From Candidatus Staskawiczbacteria bacterium (GTDB lineage: Bacteria > Patescibacteriota > Minisyncoccia > Minisyncoccales > Staskawiczbacteraceae): 64,000 bases of DNA. Of the stretch, positions 37,813 to 48,588 are shown in pieces. Positions within the stretch are counted from its first letter, which is position 1. The number at the start of each line of letters is the position of its first letter. The stretch spans positions 12,017 to 76,016 of the forward strand of contig JAPLZF010000017.1 of the NCBI GenBank assembly GCA_026395175.1, read 5' to 3'. Under the pieces are notes generated by a model, which was not told the origin of the DNA, did not search any database, and worked only from the letters and a program-made list of their open reading frames with translations. The position numbers and the translations under genes were made by a program.

Positions 37813-38775
37813 ATGGTTATTGAAATTACAATATTTTTAGCATCGTGTTTCGTTCTGTCGTGGCTCAGCTCGAAATTCATCAAAACTCTTACGGAAGTTG
37901 CCAAATATTTAGGCTGGAAAGAATTTATTGTCGCTTTTTTCGTGATGGGTTTTGCCGCTTCTCTGCCGAATTTATTTGTTGATTTGAACGCAGCTTTCCG
38001 CGGACTTCAGCAAATTTCCTTCGGAGACATTATGGGCGGAAATTTAATCGATTTGTCGCTTTCCATGGCAATAGTGGTTTTATTTAGCGGCAGTTTTGTT
38101 TCCACTGAAAGCAAAACAGTGCAGAGCAGCGCTGTTTTCACAACAATGATTGCTTTTTTGCCGTGGATTTTGGTGCTGAGGACAGGAGGATTGGACAGGT
38201 TGGACGGAGTGATATTGATTGCAGCATTTTTTATTTATGCTTTCTGGCTTTTTTCAAACGACGACAGGTTTAGGAAAGTTTACAGGAATAAAAAATTAAA
38301 AGATATCACGAAAAAATCCACTTTGATATGGGACTTAATTAAAATAATTGCCATACTCGCCATGCTTTTGGCGGCTTCTTACGCCGTAGTTTACACTGCC
38401 CAATATTTTGCCGCGACCATGAATGTTTCTCTGGCACTGGTCGGAGTTTTGATTGTTGCTTTGGGAAATTGCTTTCCCGAAATATATTTTGGAGTTATTT
38501 CCGCCAGGAAAAAAGAAAATTGGATGGTTTTGGGAGATATGATGGCTTCTGTGATTGTCTGCGCAACTCTTGTTTTGGGAATTGTCGCTCTTGTTGCGCC
38601 GTTTAAAATAAATGATTTTTCTCCGTTTCTGATAGCCAGGATTTTTATGGTGATAGCCTGCGCGCTTTATTTTTTCTTCATTGCCTCGGATAAAAAAATA
38701 ACCAAAAAAGAAGGATTGCTACTGCTTTTTGTATATGTTGCATTTTTGCTGACAGAAATATTTTTGCCTCGTTAA
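37813..38775 (+). CDS. Ca2+/cation antiporter (CaCA, YrbG-like)
   Basis: Alpha-repeat-like motifs GFAASLPNLFVDL and ALGNCFPEIYFGVIS. About 10 TM. Confidence 0.7.
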   Translation: MVIEITIFLASCFVLSWLSSKFIKTLTEVAKYLGWKEFIVAFFVMGFAASLPNLFVDLNAAFRGLQQISFGDIMGGNLIDLSLSMAIVVLFSGSFVSTESKTVQSSAVFTTMIAFLPWILVLRTGGLDRLDGVILIAAFFIYAFWLFSNDDRFRKVYRNKKLKDITKKSTLIWDLIKIIAILAMLLAASYAVVYTAQYFAATMNVSLALVGVLIVALGNCFPEIYFGVISARKKENWMVLGDMMASVIVCATLVLGIVALVAPFKINDFSPFLIARIFMVIACALYFFFIASDKKITKKEGLLLLFVYVAFLLTEIFLPR

Positions 38776-38781
38776 ATAAAA

Positions 38782-41319
38782 ATGGCATTTTCTCAATTCA
38801 CAAATAAATCTCCAGAAGAAGTTTTCAAGATTTTTAAAACTTCCGGCGGCGGCCTCTCAAAAAAAGAGGCGAATTTTGCTTTGGCAAAATTCGGTCTGAA
38901 CGAGGTGAAGACCAAAAATATCAATGCCCTGGAAATTTTTGTCAGGCAATTGAAATCTCCTTTTGCCTATTTGCTTTTAATTGCGGCGATAGTGTCTGTT
39001 TTTATCGGCCAGCCGGTTGACAGCATTGCAGTTTTGGCTTTTATTTTTATCAATGTTTCCATCGGATTTTTTCAGGAATATAGGGCGGAGAGAGCGGTGA
39101 TTCTTTTGCAAAGATTCATTCCCCAAAAAGTAAAAGTTTTGCGCGATTCAAAAGAAGAAGTCATCGATAAAAAATTTTTGGTGCCGGGTGATGTTGTTTT
39201 ATTGGAGGCCGGCGACAATGTTCCTGCCGACTTGCGGGCGATAAATCTGGAAAACTTTTTAGCCGACGAATCGGCTTTGACCGGCGAATCTGTTCCGGCT
39301 TCTAAAATTATAGAAGCTTTGCCAAGCGAAGAAAAAGAAATTTTCAAGGCAAAGAATATTATTTTTTCAGGCACTTCTGTTATTTCCGGCAAAGCCCGGG
39401 CTATTGTTGTGGCTGCCGGCAAAGACACGGTTTTTGGCAACATTGTCAAAATAATTTCCGGCATAAAAAGAGAATCAGCCTACGAAAAAAGCATCATATA
39501 TTTTTGCAAGCTGATTTTAAGGATTGTCGCCACCACAATAATCTTAATTTTTATTGCCAATATTCTGCTGAAAGGAATAAATGATATTTTGGAGCTTCTT
39601 TTGTTTTCTGTTGCCTTAATAGTGAGCATTCTGCCGGAAGCCCTGCCGGCCGTTGTGACTTTTGCGCTTTCTGAAGGAAGCTTGAAAATGGCGCGGCAAA
39701 AAGTTGTTGTGAAAAGATTGTCGGCAATTGAAGATTTGGGCAACATAGAAGTTTTATGCGCCGACAAAACAGGAACGCTGACTCAGAATAAATTATCTTT
39801 GGAAGAAATTGTTTCCTCTGACAAGAAAAAATGTTTTTTGTACGGAATTTTGACTTCGGGAGCCAAAGACAAAGACGACAAAATTTTGAATCCGTTTGAC
39901 TCGGCTTTATTTGCTCGTGTTCCGGATGATGTTTTGAGGCAGTCAAAAAAGTTTGAAATAATTTCAGAATTGCCGTTTGATTCTTACAGAATGAGGTCTG
40001 CATTTTTGGCGCAATCATCTAAAAACGAGAGATTTTTAATTGTTAAGGGAGCTCCGGAATCAATTTTGAAAAACTGCTCGAAGTTTGGCGGGAATTTTGA
40101 CAAAAAAGAGATTAAGGAAGATGTGGAAAAAGAAGGACTGGAAGGAAAAAGAGTTTTGGCGCTGGCGTTTAAAAAAGTTGATAAAGAAAAAAATAATTTA
40201 AAAGTTGAAGATGAAAAAGGGCTTACTTTTTTGGGATATTTTGTTTTTGAAGACCCTCTGAAAAATACAGCCAAAGAGGCGATAGAATTGTCAAAAAAAT
40301 TAGGAGTCCAAATTAAAATTATTACAGGAGATTCAAAAGAAGTTGCAGGATATGTCGCCAGAAAAACCGGCTTGGCTTCAAGCGAGCAGGATATTATTTC
40401 AGGCCAGGAATTGGAAAAATTGACAAAAGAAGAATTTGACGACGCCTGTCAGGAAAAATCTGTTTTTGCCAGAATTTCTCCGGACGTAAAGCACAATATA
40501 ATAAAATCTCTGCAGAAAAAATACGAAGTCGGATTTTTGGGAGAAGGAATAAATGACGCGCCGGCGCTAAAAACAGCCGATGTGGGAATTGCCGTTGTCG
40601 AGGCGTCTGATGTTGCCAGGGAAGCCGCAGATGTTGTGCTTTTGCAGAAAGATTTGCGGGTTATTGTAAATGGGATTAAAGACGGCAGAATGATTTTTGC
40701 CAATATCAACAAATATATAAAGTGCGCTTTGGCGAGCAATTTTGGTAATTTTTATTCAATTGCCGTAATTTCCTTGTTTATAAATTACTTGCCAATGCTT
40801 CCGGTGCAAATTTTATTGGGGAATATTTTGTCTGATTTTCCTTTAATTTCTGTTGCCACAGATTCGGTTGACATCGACGAATTAAGAAAGCCAAAATTGT
40901 ACCAGCTTCATAATATTTTGCCGTTAATAATTTCTTTAGCCTTGGTAAGCACAGTTTTTGATTTTATATTTTTTGCCATTTTTTTTAGGCAGGCGCCGGC
41001 GACCATACAAACTTTGTGGTTTATTGAAAGCATTTTAACCGAGCTTTTGCTGATATTCATCATTAGGACAAGGGGAAAATTTTGGCAGGCAAAAAGGCCG
41101 AGCGCTTGGATGATATGGCTAGCTGCAATTGACGCAATTTTTATTGTTGCTTTGCCATTTTTAAAAATTGGGCAGAGCTGGTTTCACTTTGTTGCTTTGC
41201 CAATTTTGCCGCTACTGATTGTGTTTTTGGAAATTGTTGCATATTTTTGGGTCAGCGAATTTGTAAAATTAATTTATTTCCATTATTGGAAAATTCCAAA
41301 TAGTGGTAATATCAAATAA
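38782..41319 (+). CDS. Cation-transporting P-type ATPase (Ca2+/Mg2+ type)
   Basis: CADKTGTLTQN phosphorylation site, LTGESVP actuator motif, GEGINDAPALKTADVGIA hinge, and N-terminal Cation_ATPase_N-like segment. Confidence 0.9.
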   Translation: MAFSQFTNKSPEEVFKIFKTSGGGLSKKEANFALAKFGLNEVKTKNINALEIFVRQLKSPFAYLLLIAAIVSVFIGQPVDSIAVLAFIFINVSIGFFQEYRAERAVILLQRFIPQKVKVLRDSKEEVIDKKFLVPGDVVLLEAGDNVPADLRAINLENFLADESALTGESVPASKIIEALPSEEKEIFKAKNIIFSGTSVISGKARAIVVAAGKDTVFGNIVKIISGIKRESAYEKSIIYFCKLILRIVATTIILIFIANILLKGINDILELLLFSVALIVSILPEALPAVVTFALSEGSLKMARQKVVVKRLSAIEDLGNIEVLCADKTGTLTQNKLSLEEIVSSDKKKCFLYGILTSGAKDKDDKILNPFDSALFARVPDDVLRQSKKFEIISELPFDSYRMRSAFLAQSSKNERFLIVKGAPESILKNCSKFGGNFDKKEIKEDVEKEGLEGKRVLALAFKKVDKEKNNLKVEDEKGLTFLGYFVFEDPLKNTAKEAIELSKKLGVQIKIITGDSKEVAGYVARKTGLASSEQDIISGQELEKLTKEEFDDACQEKSVFARISPDVKHNIIKSLQKKYEVGFLGEGINDAPALKTADVGIAVVEASDVAREAADVVLLQKDLRVIVNGIKDGRMIFANINKYIKCALASNFGNFYSIAVISLFINYLPMLPVQILLGNILSDFPLISVATDSVDIDELRKPKLYQLHNILPLIISLALVSTVFDFIFFAIFFRQAPATIQTLWFIESILTELLLIFIIRTRGKFWQAKRPSAWMIWLAAIDAIFIVALPFLKIGQSWFHFVALPILPLLIVFLEIVAYFWVSEFVKLIYFHYWKIPNSGNIK

Positions 41320-41854: not shown

Positions 41855-43144
41855 ATGAAAATTAAGTCTATTATATTCACAGCTGTTTTAGCAACAGCAG
41901 TTTTGTGTTCGCCATTTATTGCTTCAGCCGCCAGTTTAACAAGCTCGCAAATATCTGCAATAATGAACCTGCTTTACGCATTTGGAGCAGATTCAGCAAC
42001 AATTGCCAATGTGCAAACCTCGTTAACCGGCGGAACGCCAAATATTTTGTCTAATTCTTGGTGCCACACTTTTAATGCAAATTTAGGAGTTGGCAATGCC
42101 GGCAACGAAATAGCCGCGTTACATGCAGCTTTAACTAAAGAAGGTTTTACTAGCACCTCATGGAGAGCCGACAATTTTACAGAAACTACGGCTTCAGCAG
42201 TAGTCCAGTTTCAACAGAAATATGGAATTAGCCGAACAGGTTATGTTGGTCCATTAACCCGAGCAAAATTAAATGCTTTATATGGATGTAGAATAATAAC
42301 CCCGCAAAATATTACAATTAATTCTGTTTCTGGGCCAAACTCGCTTAATGTTGGGCAAACAGGAACCTGGACAGTAAACGCAACAGCTCCAAGCGGAACA
42401 AATTTAACATACAGAGCAGCGTGGGGCGAATATGATGGCTATATGGGAATTTCTTCCCAAGCAATCCCAACTGGCTTAATTAATCAAACCGGCACATTCA
42501 CTCATTCTTATGCCAATGCAGGCACCTACACCGCAACATTTATTGTTTACAGCGGATATAATTGCGTAAATTATTCCACCGGAGCGCTAAATTCTGCTTG
42601 CAGCTCTACTCAAACCAGCCTAACTGTTGTTGTGGGAGCAGTTAATGGCAATTTATCAATAACTTATCCTTCCGACCCGGCTAATTGGCATGATTATGTT
42701 GGCGGAAATTATTCCAAAGTTTTTAGTGTTGTAAACTCATCGGCTAGCCGGCATTATTCGTGGTCAATTACCAGCGGTTCTTTGCCATCGGGTCTAAATT
42801 TAACTAATCAGTTGGTTGCCTGTGCTACATATGCTTGCGTTGTTGGCCAATATTGTCCGCCTTGCCCAGATGGTTCTAGTCAAATAATTATTACCGGCAC
42901 TCCAACTCAAGCCGGCAATTTTCCATTTACTTTGACTGTTCGCGACGACCTGGGCAACACCGGCTTAGTAAACCTCAACATTTACATTGAAACAATGTCA
43001 GGATGCGCTAACCTATATTGGGCAGACAATACAAATAGAAGCTGTCAGACAATGAGACAATTTTGCGGAGCATATATGTATTATGGTTTGTATACATTTA
43101 ATACCCAGCAAGATTGTATAAATGCAGTCACGTCTGGGCATTAA
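41855..43144 (+). CDS. Secreted protein: PG-binding domain plus PKD-like and Ig-like domains (429 aa)
   Basis: Signal peptide. PG_binding_1-like segment paralogous to the previous gene (YVGPLTRAKLNALYGC). PKD-like GQTGTWTVNA...HSYANAGTYTATFIV. Ig-like SLPSGLNL...ITGTPTQAGNFPFTLTVRD. Confidence 0.75.
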   Translation: MKIKSIIFTAVLATAVLCSPFIASAASLTSSQISAIMNLLYAFGADSATIANVQTSLTGGTPNILSNSWCHTFNANLGVGNAGNEIAALHAALTKEGFTSTSWRADNFTETTASAVVQFQQKYGISRTGYVGPLTRAKLNALYGCRIITPQNITINSVSGPNSLNVGQTGTWTVNATAPSGTNLTYRAAWGEYDGYMGISSQAIPTGLINQTGTFTHSYANAGTYTATFIVYSGYNCVNYSTGALNSACSSTQTSLTVVVGAVNGNLSITYPSDPANWHDYVGGNYSKVFSVVNSSASRHYSWSITSGSLPSGLNLTNQLVACATYACVVGQYCPPCPDGSSQIIITGTPTQAGNFPFTLTVRDDLGNTGLVNLNIYIETMSGCANLYWADNTNRSCQTMRQFCGAYMYYGLYTFNTQQDCINAVTSGH

Positions 43145-45565: not shown

Positions 45566-45588
45566 AAACCCGCAAAGGCGGGTTTTTT
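45566..45588 (+). terminator. Intrinsic terminator after rplU
   Basis: Stem aaacccgc / gcgggttt with loop aaag, followed by a T-run. Confidence 0.8.
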
Positions 45589-45718
45589 GTTGCATGCAAA
45601 AATGGAAAAGGCTTGACAAGGTTTTTGGTTGGAGTAGCATAGAAAAACCAATATAAAGAATGGTTTAGGACAAGAATTATTCTTTAATGATTTATTATTA
45701 AAAGTAATTTTTAATTAC

Positions 45719-47734
45719 ATGAGCAAAACATTTCATAAGAGTTTTGTATTTTTGTTTGCCGCAATTTTTGCAATGTGCGGTTTTTTTATTGCCAGCGATG
45801 TACTCGCAGCAAGAACCCTTAATTCTGTAACGATTAATGGGGTAAGCAGTGTTTTTGTTAAGGGAGGACAAGCAGTTACCATCGCCGTAACCGTTACATT
45901 GTCTGGTACATCCTCAAACTCATGGTATTCCACGAGGTATCAGATTGGTACTTTGGGATGGGTTTGTGTTGATACTCCCGATCATCTTTCTGGTCACAAT
46001 GGAACCTATACAGAGACGTTTTCAATAACAGCACCAGTAGCACAAGGAAACTATAATCTTGCTATTACCGCACACGGTCGAGATAATACCTGTAATACTT
46101 CTTACAGCACAAACCAGATCACATTAACGAATGGAATTATTGTTGATAATACCGCGCCGACGCTGAATTTACCTGCCGATATAATCCAGCAGGCAACGGG
46201 GATAACTGGTAAAATAATAGATTACACAGCAACCGCCAATGATTCCTATCCAGCACATCCTGCAGTAAATTGCACTCCGCCGTCTGGCTCAGTCTTTCCA
46301 ATTGGACTAACAACTGTGAATTGTTCTGCGACCGATAATGCAGGCAATATTTCAAATGGCAGTTTTAAGGTTGAAATAACAAAATTAGACCAGACAATTT
46401 CTGTGACAAAATCTGCGCCGGTGAGCGCGATTTATGGAGATAATTTTGATGTTTCGGCGAGTGCGACTTCAGGATTAGATGTTGTCATCACAACTTCGGG
46501 TTCTTGTTTTGGTGATGGGACAAATTCTGCGACAATCACAATGACAAGTGGCGCAGGAACTTGCGCAGTGCATTATAATCAAGCGGGTGATCCGTCTTAT
46601 AATCCTGCTCCCGAAGTTATAGAAAATACAACAGCTCAACCAAAAATTATAAATGTTACCGCTGATGCTAAAGGCAAAAATTACGGCGACGCCGGCTCGG
46701 CTTTGACTTATGTAAATGATCCGTTAGTCGGCAGTGATTCTTTTACCGGCGACCTATCCCGCGACCCTGGCGAAGATGTTGGTGTCTACGCCATCACGCA
46801 AGGAACATTAGCTTTAAGCGGTAATTATACTTTAAATTATGTTCCAGCAAACTTAACGATTTCGCAGTTTATTCCTGTCATCAATGTTATAATTGAAGCT
46901 AAAAACAAAACCTACGGCGATGCCGACCCTGCTTTGACTTATACTTTTTCTCCTGCGTTGTATGACGGAGATACTTTCAGCGGTTCGTTGAGCCGGGCAA
47001 GCGGAGAAGATGTCGGTTTTTATGTCATTGCTCAAGGCACTTTAACGGCTGGTCCTAATTATAATTTAAGTTTTGCAGGAGCCGACCTAACAATTAATCA
47101 GAAAGATATTACCACAACCGCCGATGTCAAAAACAAAACCTACGGCGATGCCGACCCGGCATTTACTTACCAAATTACCAGCGGTTCGTTGGTCGGTAGT
47201 GATGCTTTTTCCGGTGACCTAACTCGCAATGCAGGTGAAGATGTCGGCATTTACGCTATCACGCAAGGAACGTTGTCTGCCGGTCCTAATTATAATTTAA
47301 GTTTTGCAGGAGCCGACCTAATAATTAATCAGAAAGATATTACTGTTACTGCCAATCCTAAAAATAAAATTTACAATGATGCCGACCCGGCTTTGACTTA
47401 CACCAGTGACCCGTTAGCTTTTGGCGATTCTTTTACTGGCGCGTTAATCCGCGATGACGGCGAAAGCGTTGGCAGTTATGCTATCAACCAAGGAACATTA
47501 AGCGCTGGGACAAATTATAATATAACATTTGTTCCTTCTATTTTTACTATTATGCCTTTGACAGGCGGAAGCGGAGGCAACGGATACAACAAACCATCGG
47601 AAATCAAAACTAATGATTTTGATATGTTGATTGCAGATTGGGGCAAAAATGGATCAAGCGCAGAGGATTTAAATCATGACGGCGTGGTTGATGAATATGA
47701 TTTGGCATTATTAATGTCCAATTGGAGCTTATAA
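45719..47734 (+). CDS. Secreted adhesin-like protein: HYR-like domain, five MBG-type repeats, C-terminal dockerin-like module
   Basis: Signal peptide. HYR-like DNTAPTLNLPADI...CSATDNAGN. Five ~75-aa repeats (KNKTYGDADPALTY...GEDVG.YAI.QGTL....NY.L.....LTI), with near-identical ~60-nt stretches starting about 47051 and 47282. C-terminal DLNHDGVVDEYDLALLMSNW. Confidence 0.75.
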   Translation: MSKTFHKSFVFLFAAIFAMCGFFIASDVLAARTLNSVTINGVSSVFVKGGQAVTIAVTVTLSGTSSNSWYSTRYQIGTLGWVCVDTPDHLSGHNGTYTETFSITAPVAQGNYNLAITAHGRDNTCNTSYSTNQITLTNGIIVDNTAPTLNLPADIIQQATGITGKIIDYTATANDSYPAHPAVNCTPPSGSVFPIGLTTVNCSATDNAGNISNGSFKVEITKLDQTISVTKSAPVSAIYGDNFDVSASATSGLDVVITTSGSCFGDGTNSATITMTSGAGTCAVHYNQAGDPSYNPAPEVIENTTAQPKIINVTADAKGKNYGDAGSALTYVNDPLVGSDSFTGDLSRDPGEDVGVYAITQGTLALSGNYTLNYVPANLTISQFIPVINVIIEAKNKTYGDADPALTYTFSPALYDGDTFSGSLSRASGEDVGFYVIAQGTLTAGPNYNLSFAGADLTINQKDITTTADVKNKTYGDADPAFTYQITSGSLVGSDAFSGDLTRNAGEDVGIYAITQGTLSAGPNYNLSFAGADLIINQKDITVTANPKNKIYNDADPALTYTSDPLAFGDSFTGALIRDDGESVGSYAINQGTLSAGTNYNITFVPSIFTIMPLTGGSGGNGYNKPSEIKTNDFDMLIADWGKNGSSAEDLNHDGVVDEYDLALLMSNWSL

Positions 47735-47762
47735 ATCTAATATAAATTAAAAAAACATAACT

Positions 47763-48500
47763 ATGAAAAAAATAATTTTATTAGCATTGATAATTGCTGG
47801 GACATTGTCATTGTCAGTAGGACAAATAGTTTTAGCCGATGCTTCAACATTGTCTGTGTCGCCTGCATCAGCCAATAATTCTGTTGGCGCAGAGTTTGAT
47901 GTTTTAGTCCAGCTGAATCCGGCCAATAATAAAGTTTGCGTTGTTAAGGGAACAATAGACCTGACAAATTTGTCTTGCCAAAGCATTACTCTTGCAAGTG
48001 GCGTTATGGCTCAAACAACTCCAACTTGCGCTTCTCCAAACTTTGTTTTAGGAATTCCAAAATGTTCAGCAGTTGAACAAAATCTTTTTTCAGTATCAGT
48101 TCAAGGAATTCAAGCCGGACCGGCAACTTTGTCTATTGAAGGAGCAAAAGTCATTGGAGCAGGAGCGGATGTGGCTTCCACTTTACAGAACGGAACATAT
48201 AACATTACAGCTGTAATTCCAACGCCAGTTTTGGCGCCAATTGTTGCGCCAAAAACGCCTAAACCTGTTCAGCCAGTTGCTCAGCAAGAATTGCAACCGG
48301 CTCAAGAATCTCAAACTTTTATTGAGCAGACAACAACTCCTGAAAATTCTGAAAATAATGTCCCAACAACTGCTGGGACAGCCGGCTTGTCGTCAATAGT
48401 TAAATCTGTTTATTTTTGGCCGATATTAATCATACTTATTATTGTTTTGGCAGGATACGGCATTTATTATTTCTTGGAAAGAAAAAAGGAGAAAAAATAA
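47763..48500 (+). CDS. Membrane-anchored cohesin-like protein
   Basis: Signal peptide. LSVSPASANNSVGAEFDVLVQLNP...VKGTIDL...FSVSVQGIQAGPATLSIEGAKV resembles a cohesin beta-sandwich. Pro-rich linker and C-terminal TM VYFWPILIILIIVLAGYGIYYF followed by ERKKEKK. Confidence 0.55.
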   Translation: MKKIILLALIIAGTLSLSVGQIVLADASTLSVSPASANNSVGAEFDVLVQLNPANNKVCVVKGTIDLTNLSCQSITLASGVMAQTTPTCASPNFVLGIPKCSAVEQNLFSVSVQGIQAGPATLSIEGAKVIGAGADVASTLQNGTYNITAVIPTPVLAPIVAPKTPKPVQPVAQQELQPAQESQTFIEQTTTPENSENNVPTTAGTAGLSSIVKSVYFWPILIILIIVLAGYGIYYFLERKKEKK

Positions 48501-48524: not shown

Positions 48525-48549
48525 AAAGCCCGCAAAAGCCGGGCTTTTT
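48525..48549 (+). terminator. Intrinsic terminator
   Basis: Stem agcccg/cgggct with loop caaaagc, followed by a T-run. Confidence 0.7.
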
Positions 48550-48560
48550 AGTTATCCACA

Positions 48561-48588
48561 TTGACATTGTTTTTGATGAGAGTAGAAT
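48561..48588 (+). promoter_or_regulatory. Promoter TTGACA-16-TAGAAT abutted by a TTATCCACA box
   Basis: ttatccaca at 48552-48560 directly precedes ttgaca at 48561-48566. tagaat is at 48583-48588. Confidence 0.55.

Follow-up and report, generated by a model that had tools for sequence, protein, structure and literature searches.

A Probable Membrane-Anchored Cohesin–Dockerin Pair with Exchangeable Adhesin-like Cargo in Candidatus Staskawiczbacteria

The closest functional analogue described for the two-gene locus reported here is the ScaE–CttA pair of Ruminococcus flavefaciens, in which one cell-anchored cohesin likewise meets a non-enzymatic, dockerin-tailed adhesion protein, the C-terminus of the cohesin facing the cell and the N-terminal modules of the cargo pointing outward (PMC4266597). 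Our locus lies in a stretch of 64,000 nucleotides from a Candidatus Staskawiczbacteria contig (JAPLZF010000017.1, positions 12,017 to 76,016), hereafter the window, whose own numbering is used throughout and whose forward strand carries the features below unless stated otherwise. Open reading frame 1 (ORF1, 45719..47734) encodes a protein of 671 amino acids (aa) with MBG_2 and HYR modules that appears to be a secreted, adhesin-like cargo and ends in a dockerin tail related to Pfam Dockerin_1, while ORF2 (47763..48500) encodes a protein of 245 aa that, judging from its sequence, an AlphaFold2 (AF2) model and Foldseek searches, would be a membrane anchor with a single cohesin-fold domain. The layout is the same as in ScaE–CttA, and we consider it probable that ORF1 and ORF2 form a dedicated one-to-one cohesin–dockerin tether that displays exchangeable adhesin-like cargo on a Patescibacteria cell.

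ScaE is linked to the cell wall by a sortase motif (PMC4266597), whereas ORF2 has a transmembrane helix followed by a Lys-rich tail and lacks LPXTG. The CttA dockerin is accompanied by an X-module (XDoc) where ORF1 has only a Gly-rich linker, and ScaE serves a whole cellulosome, while ORF1 and ORF2 are a bicistronic one-to-one pair without enzymes, the cohesin of which is invisible to the Pfam hidden Markov model (HMM). Cohesins of R. flavefaciens are among the best fold matches of ORF2 (5n5p, template modeling score (TM) 0.73), and its fold matches also include 2w1n and 2jh2 of Clostridium perfringens. With the NagH dockerin and NagJ cohesin (2OZN/2JNK), the latter organism also provides the protein that the tail family matches best by sequence; its system is non-cellulosomal like the present one, and neither takes part in cellulose degradation, but its modules join secreted glycoside hydrolases or toxins into complexes, where here a membrane anchor would hold an adhesin. 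To our knowledge, the C. perfringens cohesin and dockerin genes include no dedicated adjacent pair. The third-best fold match of ORF2, and the one with the highest identity, is the non-cellulosomal Archaeoglobus fulgidus cohesin 2XDH (E 1.3e-8, 19% identity), which exemplifies such modules in organisms that are not cellulolytic; it is an archaeal protein of unknown role for which we know of no conserved anchor/cargo operon. The type I pair of Clostridium thermocellum (1OHZ) shares the dockerin architecture of two repeats of calcium loop and helix; the ORF1/ORF2 system has neither its scaffoldins with several cohesins nor its enzyme cargo, and unlike in 1OHZ the helices of the ORF1 family end in a conserved LMxxWG and the ORF2 cohesin carries two predicted disulfides.

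Little is known about how Patescibacteria, the candidate phyla radiation (CPR), attach to hosts or surfaces, and the majority of their surface proteins lack annotation. A dockerin-domain protein is reported to be essential in a cultivated Saccharibacterium, with no mention of a cohesin (PMC10633639). In the literature searched, to which subscription-only papers did not belong, no cohesin partner and no pair of the ORF1/ORF2 type is described for CPR. What is new here is a cryptic cohesin family that, in these bacteria, would serve as the membrane anchor of a minimal bicistronic module for the display of adhesins as exchangeable cargo.

Related loci were taken from contigs encoding homologs, from GTDB species genomes and from metagenomes, the locus search being run with a 20-sequence subset. 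In all 51 of the 51 assessable loci (about 44 non-redundant) a dockerin-tailed gene stands immediately 5′ of the cohesin-fold gene on the same strand; assessable loci are those with upstream sequence, one of them judged by Pfam annotation alone, and five more at contig edges were left out. Recurring at this rate, the two-gene arrangement is far beyond chance. The cargo stop and the cohesin-fold gene are separated by about 10–120 nt in the related loci and by 28 A/T-rich nt in the window (47735..47762), which is the distance stated in an earlier interpretation of this DNA made from its letters only (the sequence-only reading). The tail HMM finds exactly one protein per locus, with a sole weak extra match in locus L017; in the 64-kb window it matches once, as does the cohesin-fold HMM. 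Nearly all of the 150 listed representatives carry one cohesin-fold domain per anchor, and at each locus a single cohesin-fold module accompanies a single dockerin. At three loci (L048:4278-5000, L049:4253-4975 and the P0018 locus) a gene for a PrsW-family membrane protease follows directly 3′ of the anchor; neither the window nor its syntenic relative L003 has this gene, and the protease might process anchor or cargo in that sub-lineage.

The C-terminus of ORF1 reads NDFDMLIADWGKNGSSAEDLNHDGVVDEYDLALLMSNWSL up to the stop codon, within the longer end stretch GGSGGNGYNKPSEIKTNDFDMLIADWGKNGSSAEDLNHDGVVDEYDLALLMSNWSL. Dockerins are defined by two tandem repeats of about 22 residues, each with a 12-residue calcium loop bearing Asp or Asn at positions 1, 3, 5, 9 and 12 and followed by a helix. 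Repeat 2 (aa 650–671, 47666..47731), recognized by Pfam, motif, AF2 model and covariation, is intact with its DLNHDGVVDEYD loop and helix: the loop D650-L-N-H-D-G-V-V-D-E-Y-D661 is fully canonical, and Tyr660 (47696-47698) occupies its recognition position 11. A D-x-N-x-D-G...D loop occurs only once in the six frames of the window. Repeat 1 (aa 622–642, 47582..47644) follows the Gly-rich linker GGSGGN (47564..47581), at which relatives carry poly-Gly. The sequence-only reading had seen in it a partial repeat, NDFDMLIADWG; alignment with 34 orthologous tails identifies it as a true first dockerin repeat, though a degenerate one, in which the helix DFDMLIADWG is retained and the calcium loop (GYNKPSEIKTND) is lost, ligand positions 1, 5 and 9, canonically D/N, being occupied by G, P and K. 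In the closest relatives (L006, L026 and L033) the same loop is partly degenerate, and in most orthologs both loops are intact.

The degenerate first loop accounts for the sub-threshold score of the window dockerin: ORF1 reaches only 12.9 bits as a whole protein, in a match spanning the second half of the model only, and 19.3 bits as the tail alone against a Dockerin_1 (PF00404) cutoff of 22.9. Its orthologs match this model in 30/30 tails at E<=0.01 (best 9.2e-13), several of them above the cutoff (40.1, 38.0, 35.7 and 34.5 bits), and share the consensus ..GDINxDGxVDEYDFAILMxQWGxTGSxLSADLNxDGxVDEYDFAILMANWG at the extreme C-terminus, where the two loop/helix repeats stand behind a poly-Gly linker. 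Compared with the PDB, the tail-family profile retrieves C. perfringens NagH (2jnk/2ozn, 2.3e-9), Bacteroides cellulosolvens 2y3n_B (2.8e-7) and many type I dockerins, the window tail alone reaching E 0.02 against 2jnk/2ozn. AF2 predicts helices at residues 16–24 and 44–52 of the window tail, with a predicted local distance difference test (pLDDT) of 74–93 over residues 11–56 and a disordered degenerate loop; in Foldseek, the top 16/16 matches of this 56-residue model are dockerins (best 2y3n_B, TM 0.71), at weak E-values (>=0.1). The tail family is a dockerin family and the window copy a degenerate member of it, so the dockerin-type C-terminus of the sequence-only reading stands for the orthologous tails and falls below the cutoff for its own copy. 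A tail-profile search of a set of 5.8 billion proteins returned only fragments of <100 aa. The extra match in L017, considered as a second cargo, was rejected as a PEP-CTERM protein: at L017:95-232, directly 5′ of the cargo/anchor pair, a protein end joins a dockerin-like repeat to a PEP-CTERM-type tail (VPEPTTMLLLGPGAFALIRRRHR). L017 is a 2-kb contig on which such a protein end is unexpected for Patescibacteria, and its assembly may be chimeric.

ORF2 shares 100% identity with a 'hypothetical protein' listed at NCBI for a Candidatus Staskawiczbacteria metagenome-assembled genome and belongs to a family of 416 clusters at 50% identity, all of them 'hypothetical'. Its ectodomain (aa 28–149, 47844..48209) is modeled by AF2 at a pLDDT of about 97 as the nine-stranded beta-sandwich (jelly-roll) of cohesins, a fold of some 130–150 residues. 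With this model as query, cohesins make up about 25 of the top 27 PDB matches in Foldseek (E 4e-9 to 1e-5, TM up to 0.73) and comprise types I, II and III as well as non-cellulosomal representatives. By its predicted structure, the ORF2 ectodomain is a cohesin fold. Identities as a CLIPPER/DUF11 stalk (1e-5) or a YcnI copper-binding domain (6e-5) were rejected, as both rank lower by fold and lack an HMM match, and ORF2 is single-domain. Sequence searches gave a different picture: Pfam Cohesin (PF00963) has zero matches in ORF2 and 75 homologs, NCBIfam finds nothing in ORF2, and PDB searches with ORF2, its full-length profile and a domain-only profile return no significant cohesin, the best match being 7rpy_A, a 'cohesin-containing protein', at E 0.3. 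From the cohesin-like beta-sandwich proposed by the sequence-only reading, the fold is therefore retained by AF2 and Foldseek and the HMM match is not obtained.

A bridge to canonical cohesins was also sought through the Cys-free N-domain of the family member P0213, which has no Pfam Cohesin match and whose own homolog search came back empty. Homology of this second, Cys-free domain of P0213 to the ORF2 family (hhalign 94%) hints that CPR possess a broader, divergent superfamily of cohesin-like proteins that likewise escapes Pfam Cohesin. P0213, P0230, P0275 and P0238 are family members of 420–575 aa with additional Flg_new_2, fn3 or DUF5018 modules.

Four cysteines of the ectodomain (Cys59, Cys72, Cys89 and Cys101; 47937-48065) are lost pairwise across 210 homologs, Cys59 with Cys101 in 27 cases and Cys72 with Cys89 in two, with one exception, which argues for two disulfides, Cys59–Cys101 and Cys72–Cys89. 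Joint loss of Cys59 and Cys101 fits strands 3 and 6, which are neighbors in the 8-3-6-5 face through which cohesins bind dockerins; for cohesins, a two-disulfide feature is not described in the literature covered here. The domain is preceded by a putative signal peptide (aa 1–25, 47763..47837), with Ala25 invariant in 75 homologs and a low-confidence AF2 helix at residues 4–18, and followed by a disordered stalk rich in Pro, Gln and Thr (aa 150–215, 48210..48407; pLDDT 53–73), which by C-terminal alignment includes a semi-conserved motif (NVPTTAGTAG). A predicted transmembrane helix (aa 216–238; AF2 helix 218–243) with the Lys-rich, presumably cytoplasmic tail ERKKEKK closes the protein (48408..48497), a pattern conserved in the 75 homologs. 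Following the positive-inside rule, this end would place the cohesin-fold domain outside the cell on a stalk of about 65 residues after removal of the signal peptide. Signal peptide, Pro-rich stalk and C-terminal anchor had all been named by the sequence-only reading and are recovered in sequence, AF2 model and alignment. Neither ORF2 nor its homologs contain LPXTG, and NCBIfam yields no match to a sorting-signal model. Roughly 10 residues before the transmembrane helix, about half of the anchors carry a semi-conserved (E/N)NNIPAxxGAA(S/G)F in an otherwise hypervariable stalk; its form in the window is NNVPTTAGTAG (ORF2 aa ~195–215, 48345-48407), and it could be an unrecognized sorting, processing or wall-attachment signal.

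The body of ORF1 begins with a signal-peptide-like N-terminus (aa 1–31, ...SDVLAA/RT, 45719..45811), read directly from the sequence, and contains an HYR domain (aa 142–220, 46142..46378; PF02494, 35.4 bits, 1.4e-8) and four MBG_2 repeats of YGX type (aa ~309–614, 46643..47560, outer bounds approximate; PF18676, four stretches, 232.7 bits, 4.4e-70), in agreement with its first description as a secreted HYR/MBG protein. In the related loci the upstream protein varies from about 200 to >2200 aa, and in about 20 cargo proteins analyzed with Pfam the modules are mutually unrelated and of adhesion type: Bact_surface_Ig-like, aBig_2/Big_2/Big_3/Big_13, HYR, YDG/MBG, VWA+LTD+SdrD_B, CHB_HEX_C_1/Fn3_assoc, TSP1/EGF and Flg_new_2. 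None of them shows a catalytic domain but for one sub-threshold SQHop_cyclase_C-like region, so that the cargo looks like an adhesin rather than an enzyme across the whole set and not only in the window, for which this had been suggested.

Cargo replacement is seen in the comparison with L003, which shares the gene order cation ATPase, peptidoglycan (PG)-binding surface protein, RmuC, L21, cargo, anchor, carbamoyltransferase, methyltransferase and PD-(D/E)XK. Between window 45719-48500 and L003:3729-6699 the flanking proteins are 71–89% identical and the anchors 49%, so that the anchor is changing more quickly than the housekeeping proteins encoded beside it. The cargo proteins can be aligned over their last 49 residues only (51% identity), with no detectable similarity in the body; the cargo body has therefore been replaced between close relatives while the dockerin plug was kept. 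Taken from the sequences, these figures point to a locus that evolves rapidly and in which cassettes are replaced. A natural cargo knock-out is seen at L009:4639-5954, on a 594-kb Staskawiczbacteria contig, where a transposase pair of the IS3-type insertion sequence (IS), on the minus strand, has wrecked the cargo gene and left the anchor intact. The leftover 61–96-aa dockerin remnant (P0085) had been considered as a dockerin-only mini-protein, which was rejected in favor of a remnant after IS insertion. At L001:2752-3285 a separate DUF4430 gene stands just 5′ of the cargo, the one with the SQHop_cyclase_C-like region, and in P0052 DUF4430 is fused to the C-terminus of the anchor past the transmembrane helix, which makes the association recurrent.

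Contact between tail and cohesin is suggested by covariation. Among 34 non-redundant dockerin/cohesin pairs, giving 7182 inter-protein column pairs scored by mutual information with average product correction, the top two connect tail columns 46 and 17 with one and the same cohesin column, 111. The two tail columns correspond to position 11, in repeat 2 and in repeat 1, respectively, and the cohesin column is Asp136 of ORF2 (48168-48170), located in IGAGADV just after strand 8. Tyr is found with Asp in 19 of 23 pairs, and Leu, Ile, Met or Phe with a non-Asp residue, mostly Ile, Val or Leu, in 10 of 11 (Fisher 7e-5). Members of the non-Tyr class are spread over a neighbor-joining tree, on which the switch is concordant in at least four sister contrasts. 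As this rule had been found post hoc, a prediction was fixed before new loci were fetched, comprising nine new homologs each <=75% identical to any training cohesin, eight of them with DNA. It was correct in 8/8 cases (test-set Fisher p 0.018): cohesins with Ile, Ile, Ile, Val and Leu came with Ser, Leu, Leu, Leu and Leu, respectively, and three Asp cohesins with Tyr. Over all 42 pairs the combined Fisher p is 5e-7. In L052, repeat 1 has Tyr, repeat 2 Leu and the cohesin Leu, so the cohesin tracks repeat 2, the sole intact repeat in the window protein, where Tyr660 goes with Asp136. Overall, tail and cohesin show only weak co-divergence (Mantel r 0.156, p ~0.08), so the site-specific signal alone was used.

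The covarying dockerin position is a canonical recognition position, as seen in the C. thermocellum complex, in which positions 10/11 of each repeat (Ser11/Thr12 and Ser45/Thr46) form the recognition code and contact cohesin residues Asn37/Asp39 and Gly123/Ala125 on strands 3 and 8 (PMC5772552). Here position 11 covaries with the residue just after strand 8, and the Ser-Thr code is replaced by Glu-Tyr or Glu-Leu in the ORF1 family; going by residue chemistry, a swap of a Tyr-OH/Asp pair for a Leu/aliphatic pair would be sensible. The dual-binding symmetry of the type I dockerin is lost in the window protein owing to its degenerate repeat 1. In the wider family of 210 members, column 111 holds Ser 70 times and Asp 68 times, and a third specificity class with Ser may exist.

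In the mechanism that we propose, ORF2 would be exported, freed of its signal peptide and held by its C-terminal helix with the Lys-rich end inside, and its Pro-rich stalk of about 65 residues would hold the single, disulfide-braced cohesin-fold domain off the membrane. Secreted ORF1 would plug its C-terminal dockerin non-covalently, and probably in a calcium-dependent manner, into this domain, with Tyr660 set against Asp136 next to strand 8; as repeat 1 is degenerate, the window dockerin would work through repeat 2 in a single binding mode. The HYR/MBG body would thereby be tethered to the cell surface, possibly for attachment of an episymbiotic CPR cell to a host or particle, and with anchor and plug constant and the cargo body exchanged, the locus would act as a socket for interchangeable adhesins. 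With a single cohesin, a single cargo and no enzyme, the pair is not a cellulosome; of the cellulosome-type anchoring put forward by the sequence-only reading, the logic is upheld by the 51/51 pairing and the 8/8 covariation, while the composition is not cellulosome-like.

Several points weigh against this mechanism. The dockerin of the window itself scores below threshold and lacks calcium site 1, and the missing HMM and profile support for a cohesin in ORF2 and 75 homologs leaves cohesin homology, as opposed to fold convergence, unproven. The covariation rule is post hoc with a borderline family-wise permutation test (p ~0.07; 0.524 observed, with 0.537 at the 95th percentile of the null), the sequences share ancestry, and the test set comprises eight loci. 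The promoter and terminator sites described below are consensus matches only. As the HMM scores of the window are weak (Dockerin_1 in ORF1) or absent (Cohesin in ORF2), the Pfam check that had been suggested for this locus came close to rejecting the pair, wrongly, since the deeper evidence reverses its outcome.

One-to-one pairing and covariation demand recognition but not permanence, and the tail could instead be a sorting or assembly signal that ORF2 recognizes transiently as a dedicated receptor or chaperone, the cargo then being released or attached elsewhere, for example handed to the wall, an S-layer or a pilus-like structure. The tail does resemble a sorting signal in that it always closes the protein and is preceded by a Gly-rich linker, and three loci have the PrsW-type protease gene after the anchor. 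This gene is absent from the window and L003, however, ORF2 has no catalytic or transport domain in Pfam or NCBIfam and no sorting-signal model matches, and characterized cohesin–dockerin pairs are all stable structural tethers, which makes a merely passing contact unlikely.

We also find it improbable that the two proteins are co-functional neighbors without contact, ORF2 being a generic surface beta-sandwich of stalk, S-layer or glycan-binding type and the dockerin a calcium-binding stabilizing or glycan-binding module, with a third partner shared by both. Covariation at the canonical dockerin recognition position, correct in all eight out-of-sample cases, is hard to explain in this way. Although a sequence-level link to cohesins was not found and folds with other roles, CLIPPER/DUF11 and YcnI, do appear lower in the Foldseek list, cohesins dominate its top, the domain is single rather than a tandem stalk, no DUF11 or YcnI HMM matches, and the N-terminal His of YcnI-type proteins is absent. 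The Saccharibacteria study does read its dockerin protein as glycan-targeting (PMC10633639). Chance adjacency, or an over-read EF-hand-like motif beside an unrelated membrane protein, draws on the sub-threshold Dockerin and absent Cohesin scores of the window and has a negligible probability, as it is effectively refuted by the locus census, in which all loci keep the arrangement despite unrelated cargo and differing neighborhoods, and by the family-level dockerin significance of 9e-13.

Returning to the stable tether, a tentative extension, which we hold to be doubtful, is a plug-and-socket locus of Staskawiczbacteria and related Patescibacteria in which the cryptic membrane cohesin and the plug are fixed and recombination at the Gly-rich joint exchanges whole adhesin bodies, with at least two orthogonal specificity classes (Tyr/Asp vs Leu/hydrophobic), the adhesin setting the host or surface of ultra-small, probably episymbiotic cells. 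With the assignment proposed here, an unannotated family gains an identity as cohesin-fold anchor with a dedicated dockerin-tailed partner, and cohesin–dockerin tethering would be extended to CPR in a one-to-one, non-enzymatic and membrane-anchored form. It also reveals that the Pfam Cohesin model misses a whole clade and opens a partner search for dockerin-domain proteins in Patescibacteria. With its fast-exchanged cargo, the locus is a candidate marker for specificity to host or niche, and a compact natural pair with a Tyr/Asp vs Leu/Ile switch might serve as a source of orthogonal protein-assembly parts.

A consensus scan brackets ORF1 and ORF2 as one unit between promoter- and terminator-like signals. 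A terminator-like hairpin after rplU (L21) with an 8-bp stem, five GC pairs and a T-run (45566..45585) is the likely upstream boundary, and a promoter-like TTGACA-16-TAGCAT with 10/12 matches (45613..45640) lies 5′ of ORF1. The 28-nt spacer is free of terminator-like sites, so that co-transcription of both genes is probable. A GC-rich hairpin directly after ORF2 (48525..48547), reported by the scan on the minus strand but palindromic in its stem, likely forms the downstream boundary, followed by a strong promoter-like TTGACA-16-TAGAAT with 11/12 matches (48561..48588) for the carbamoyltransferase gene.

A few kb upstream of the dockerin module, window 37813-41319 holds genes for a Na+/Ca2+ exchanger and a P-type cation ATPase, the latter syntenic in L003; the presence of calcium-handling genes near a putative calcium-binding surface system is probably a coincidence. 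Between them and the module, a second secreted surface protein of 429 aa (41855-43144) combines PG_binding_1, PKD and He_PIG without a dockerin; in comparison with its L003 ortholog, conservation is confined to the N- and C-terminal parts, the middle being variable as well.

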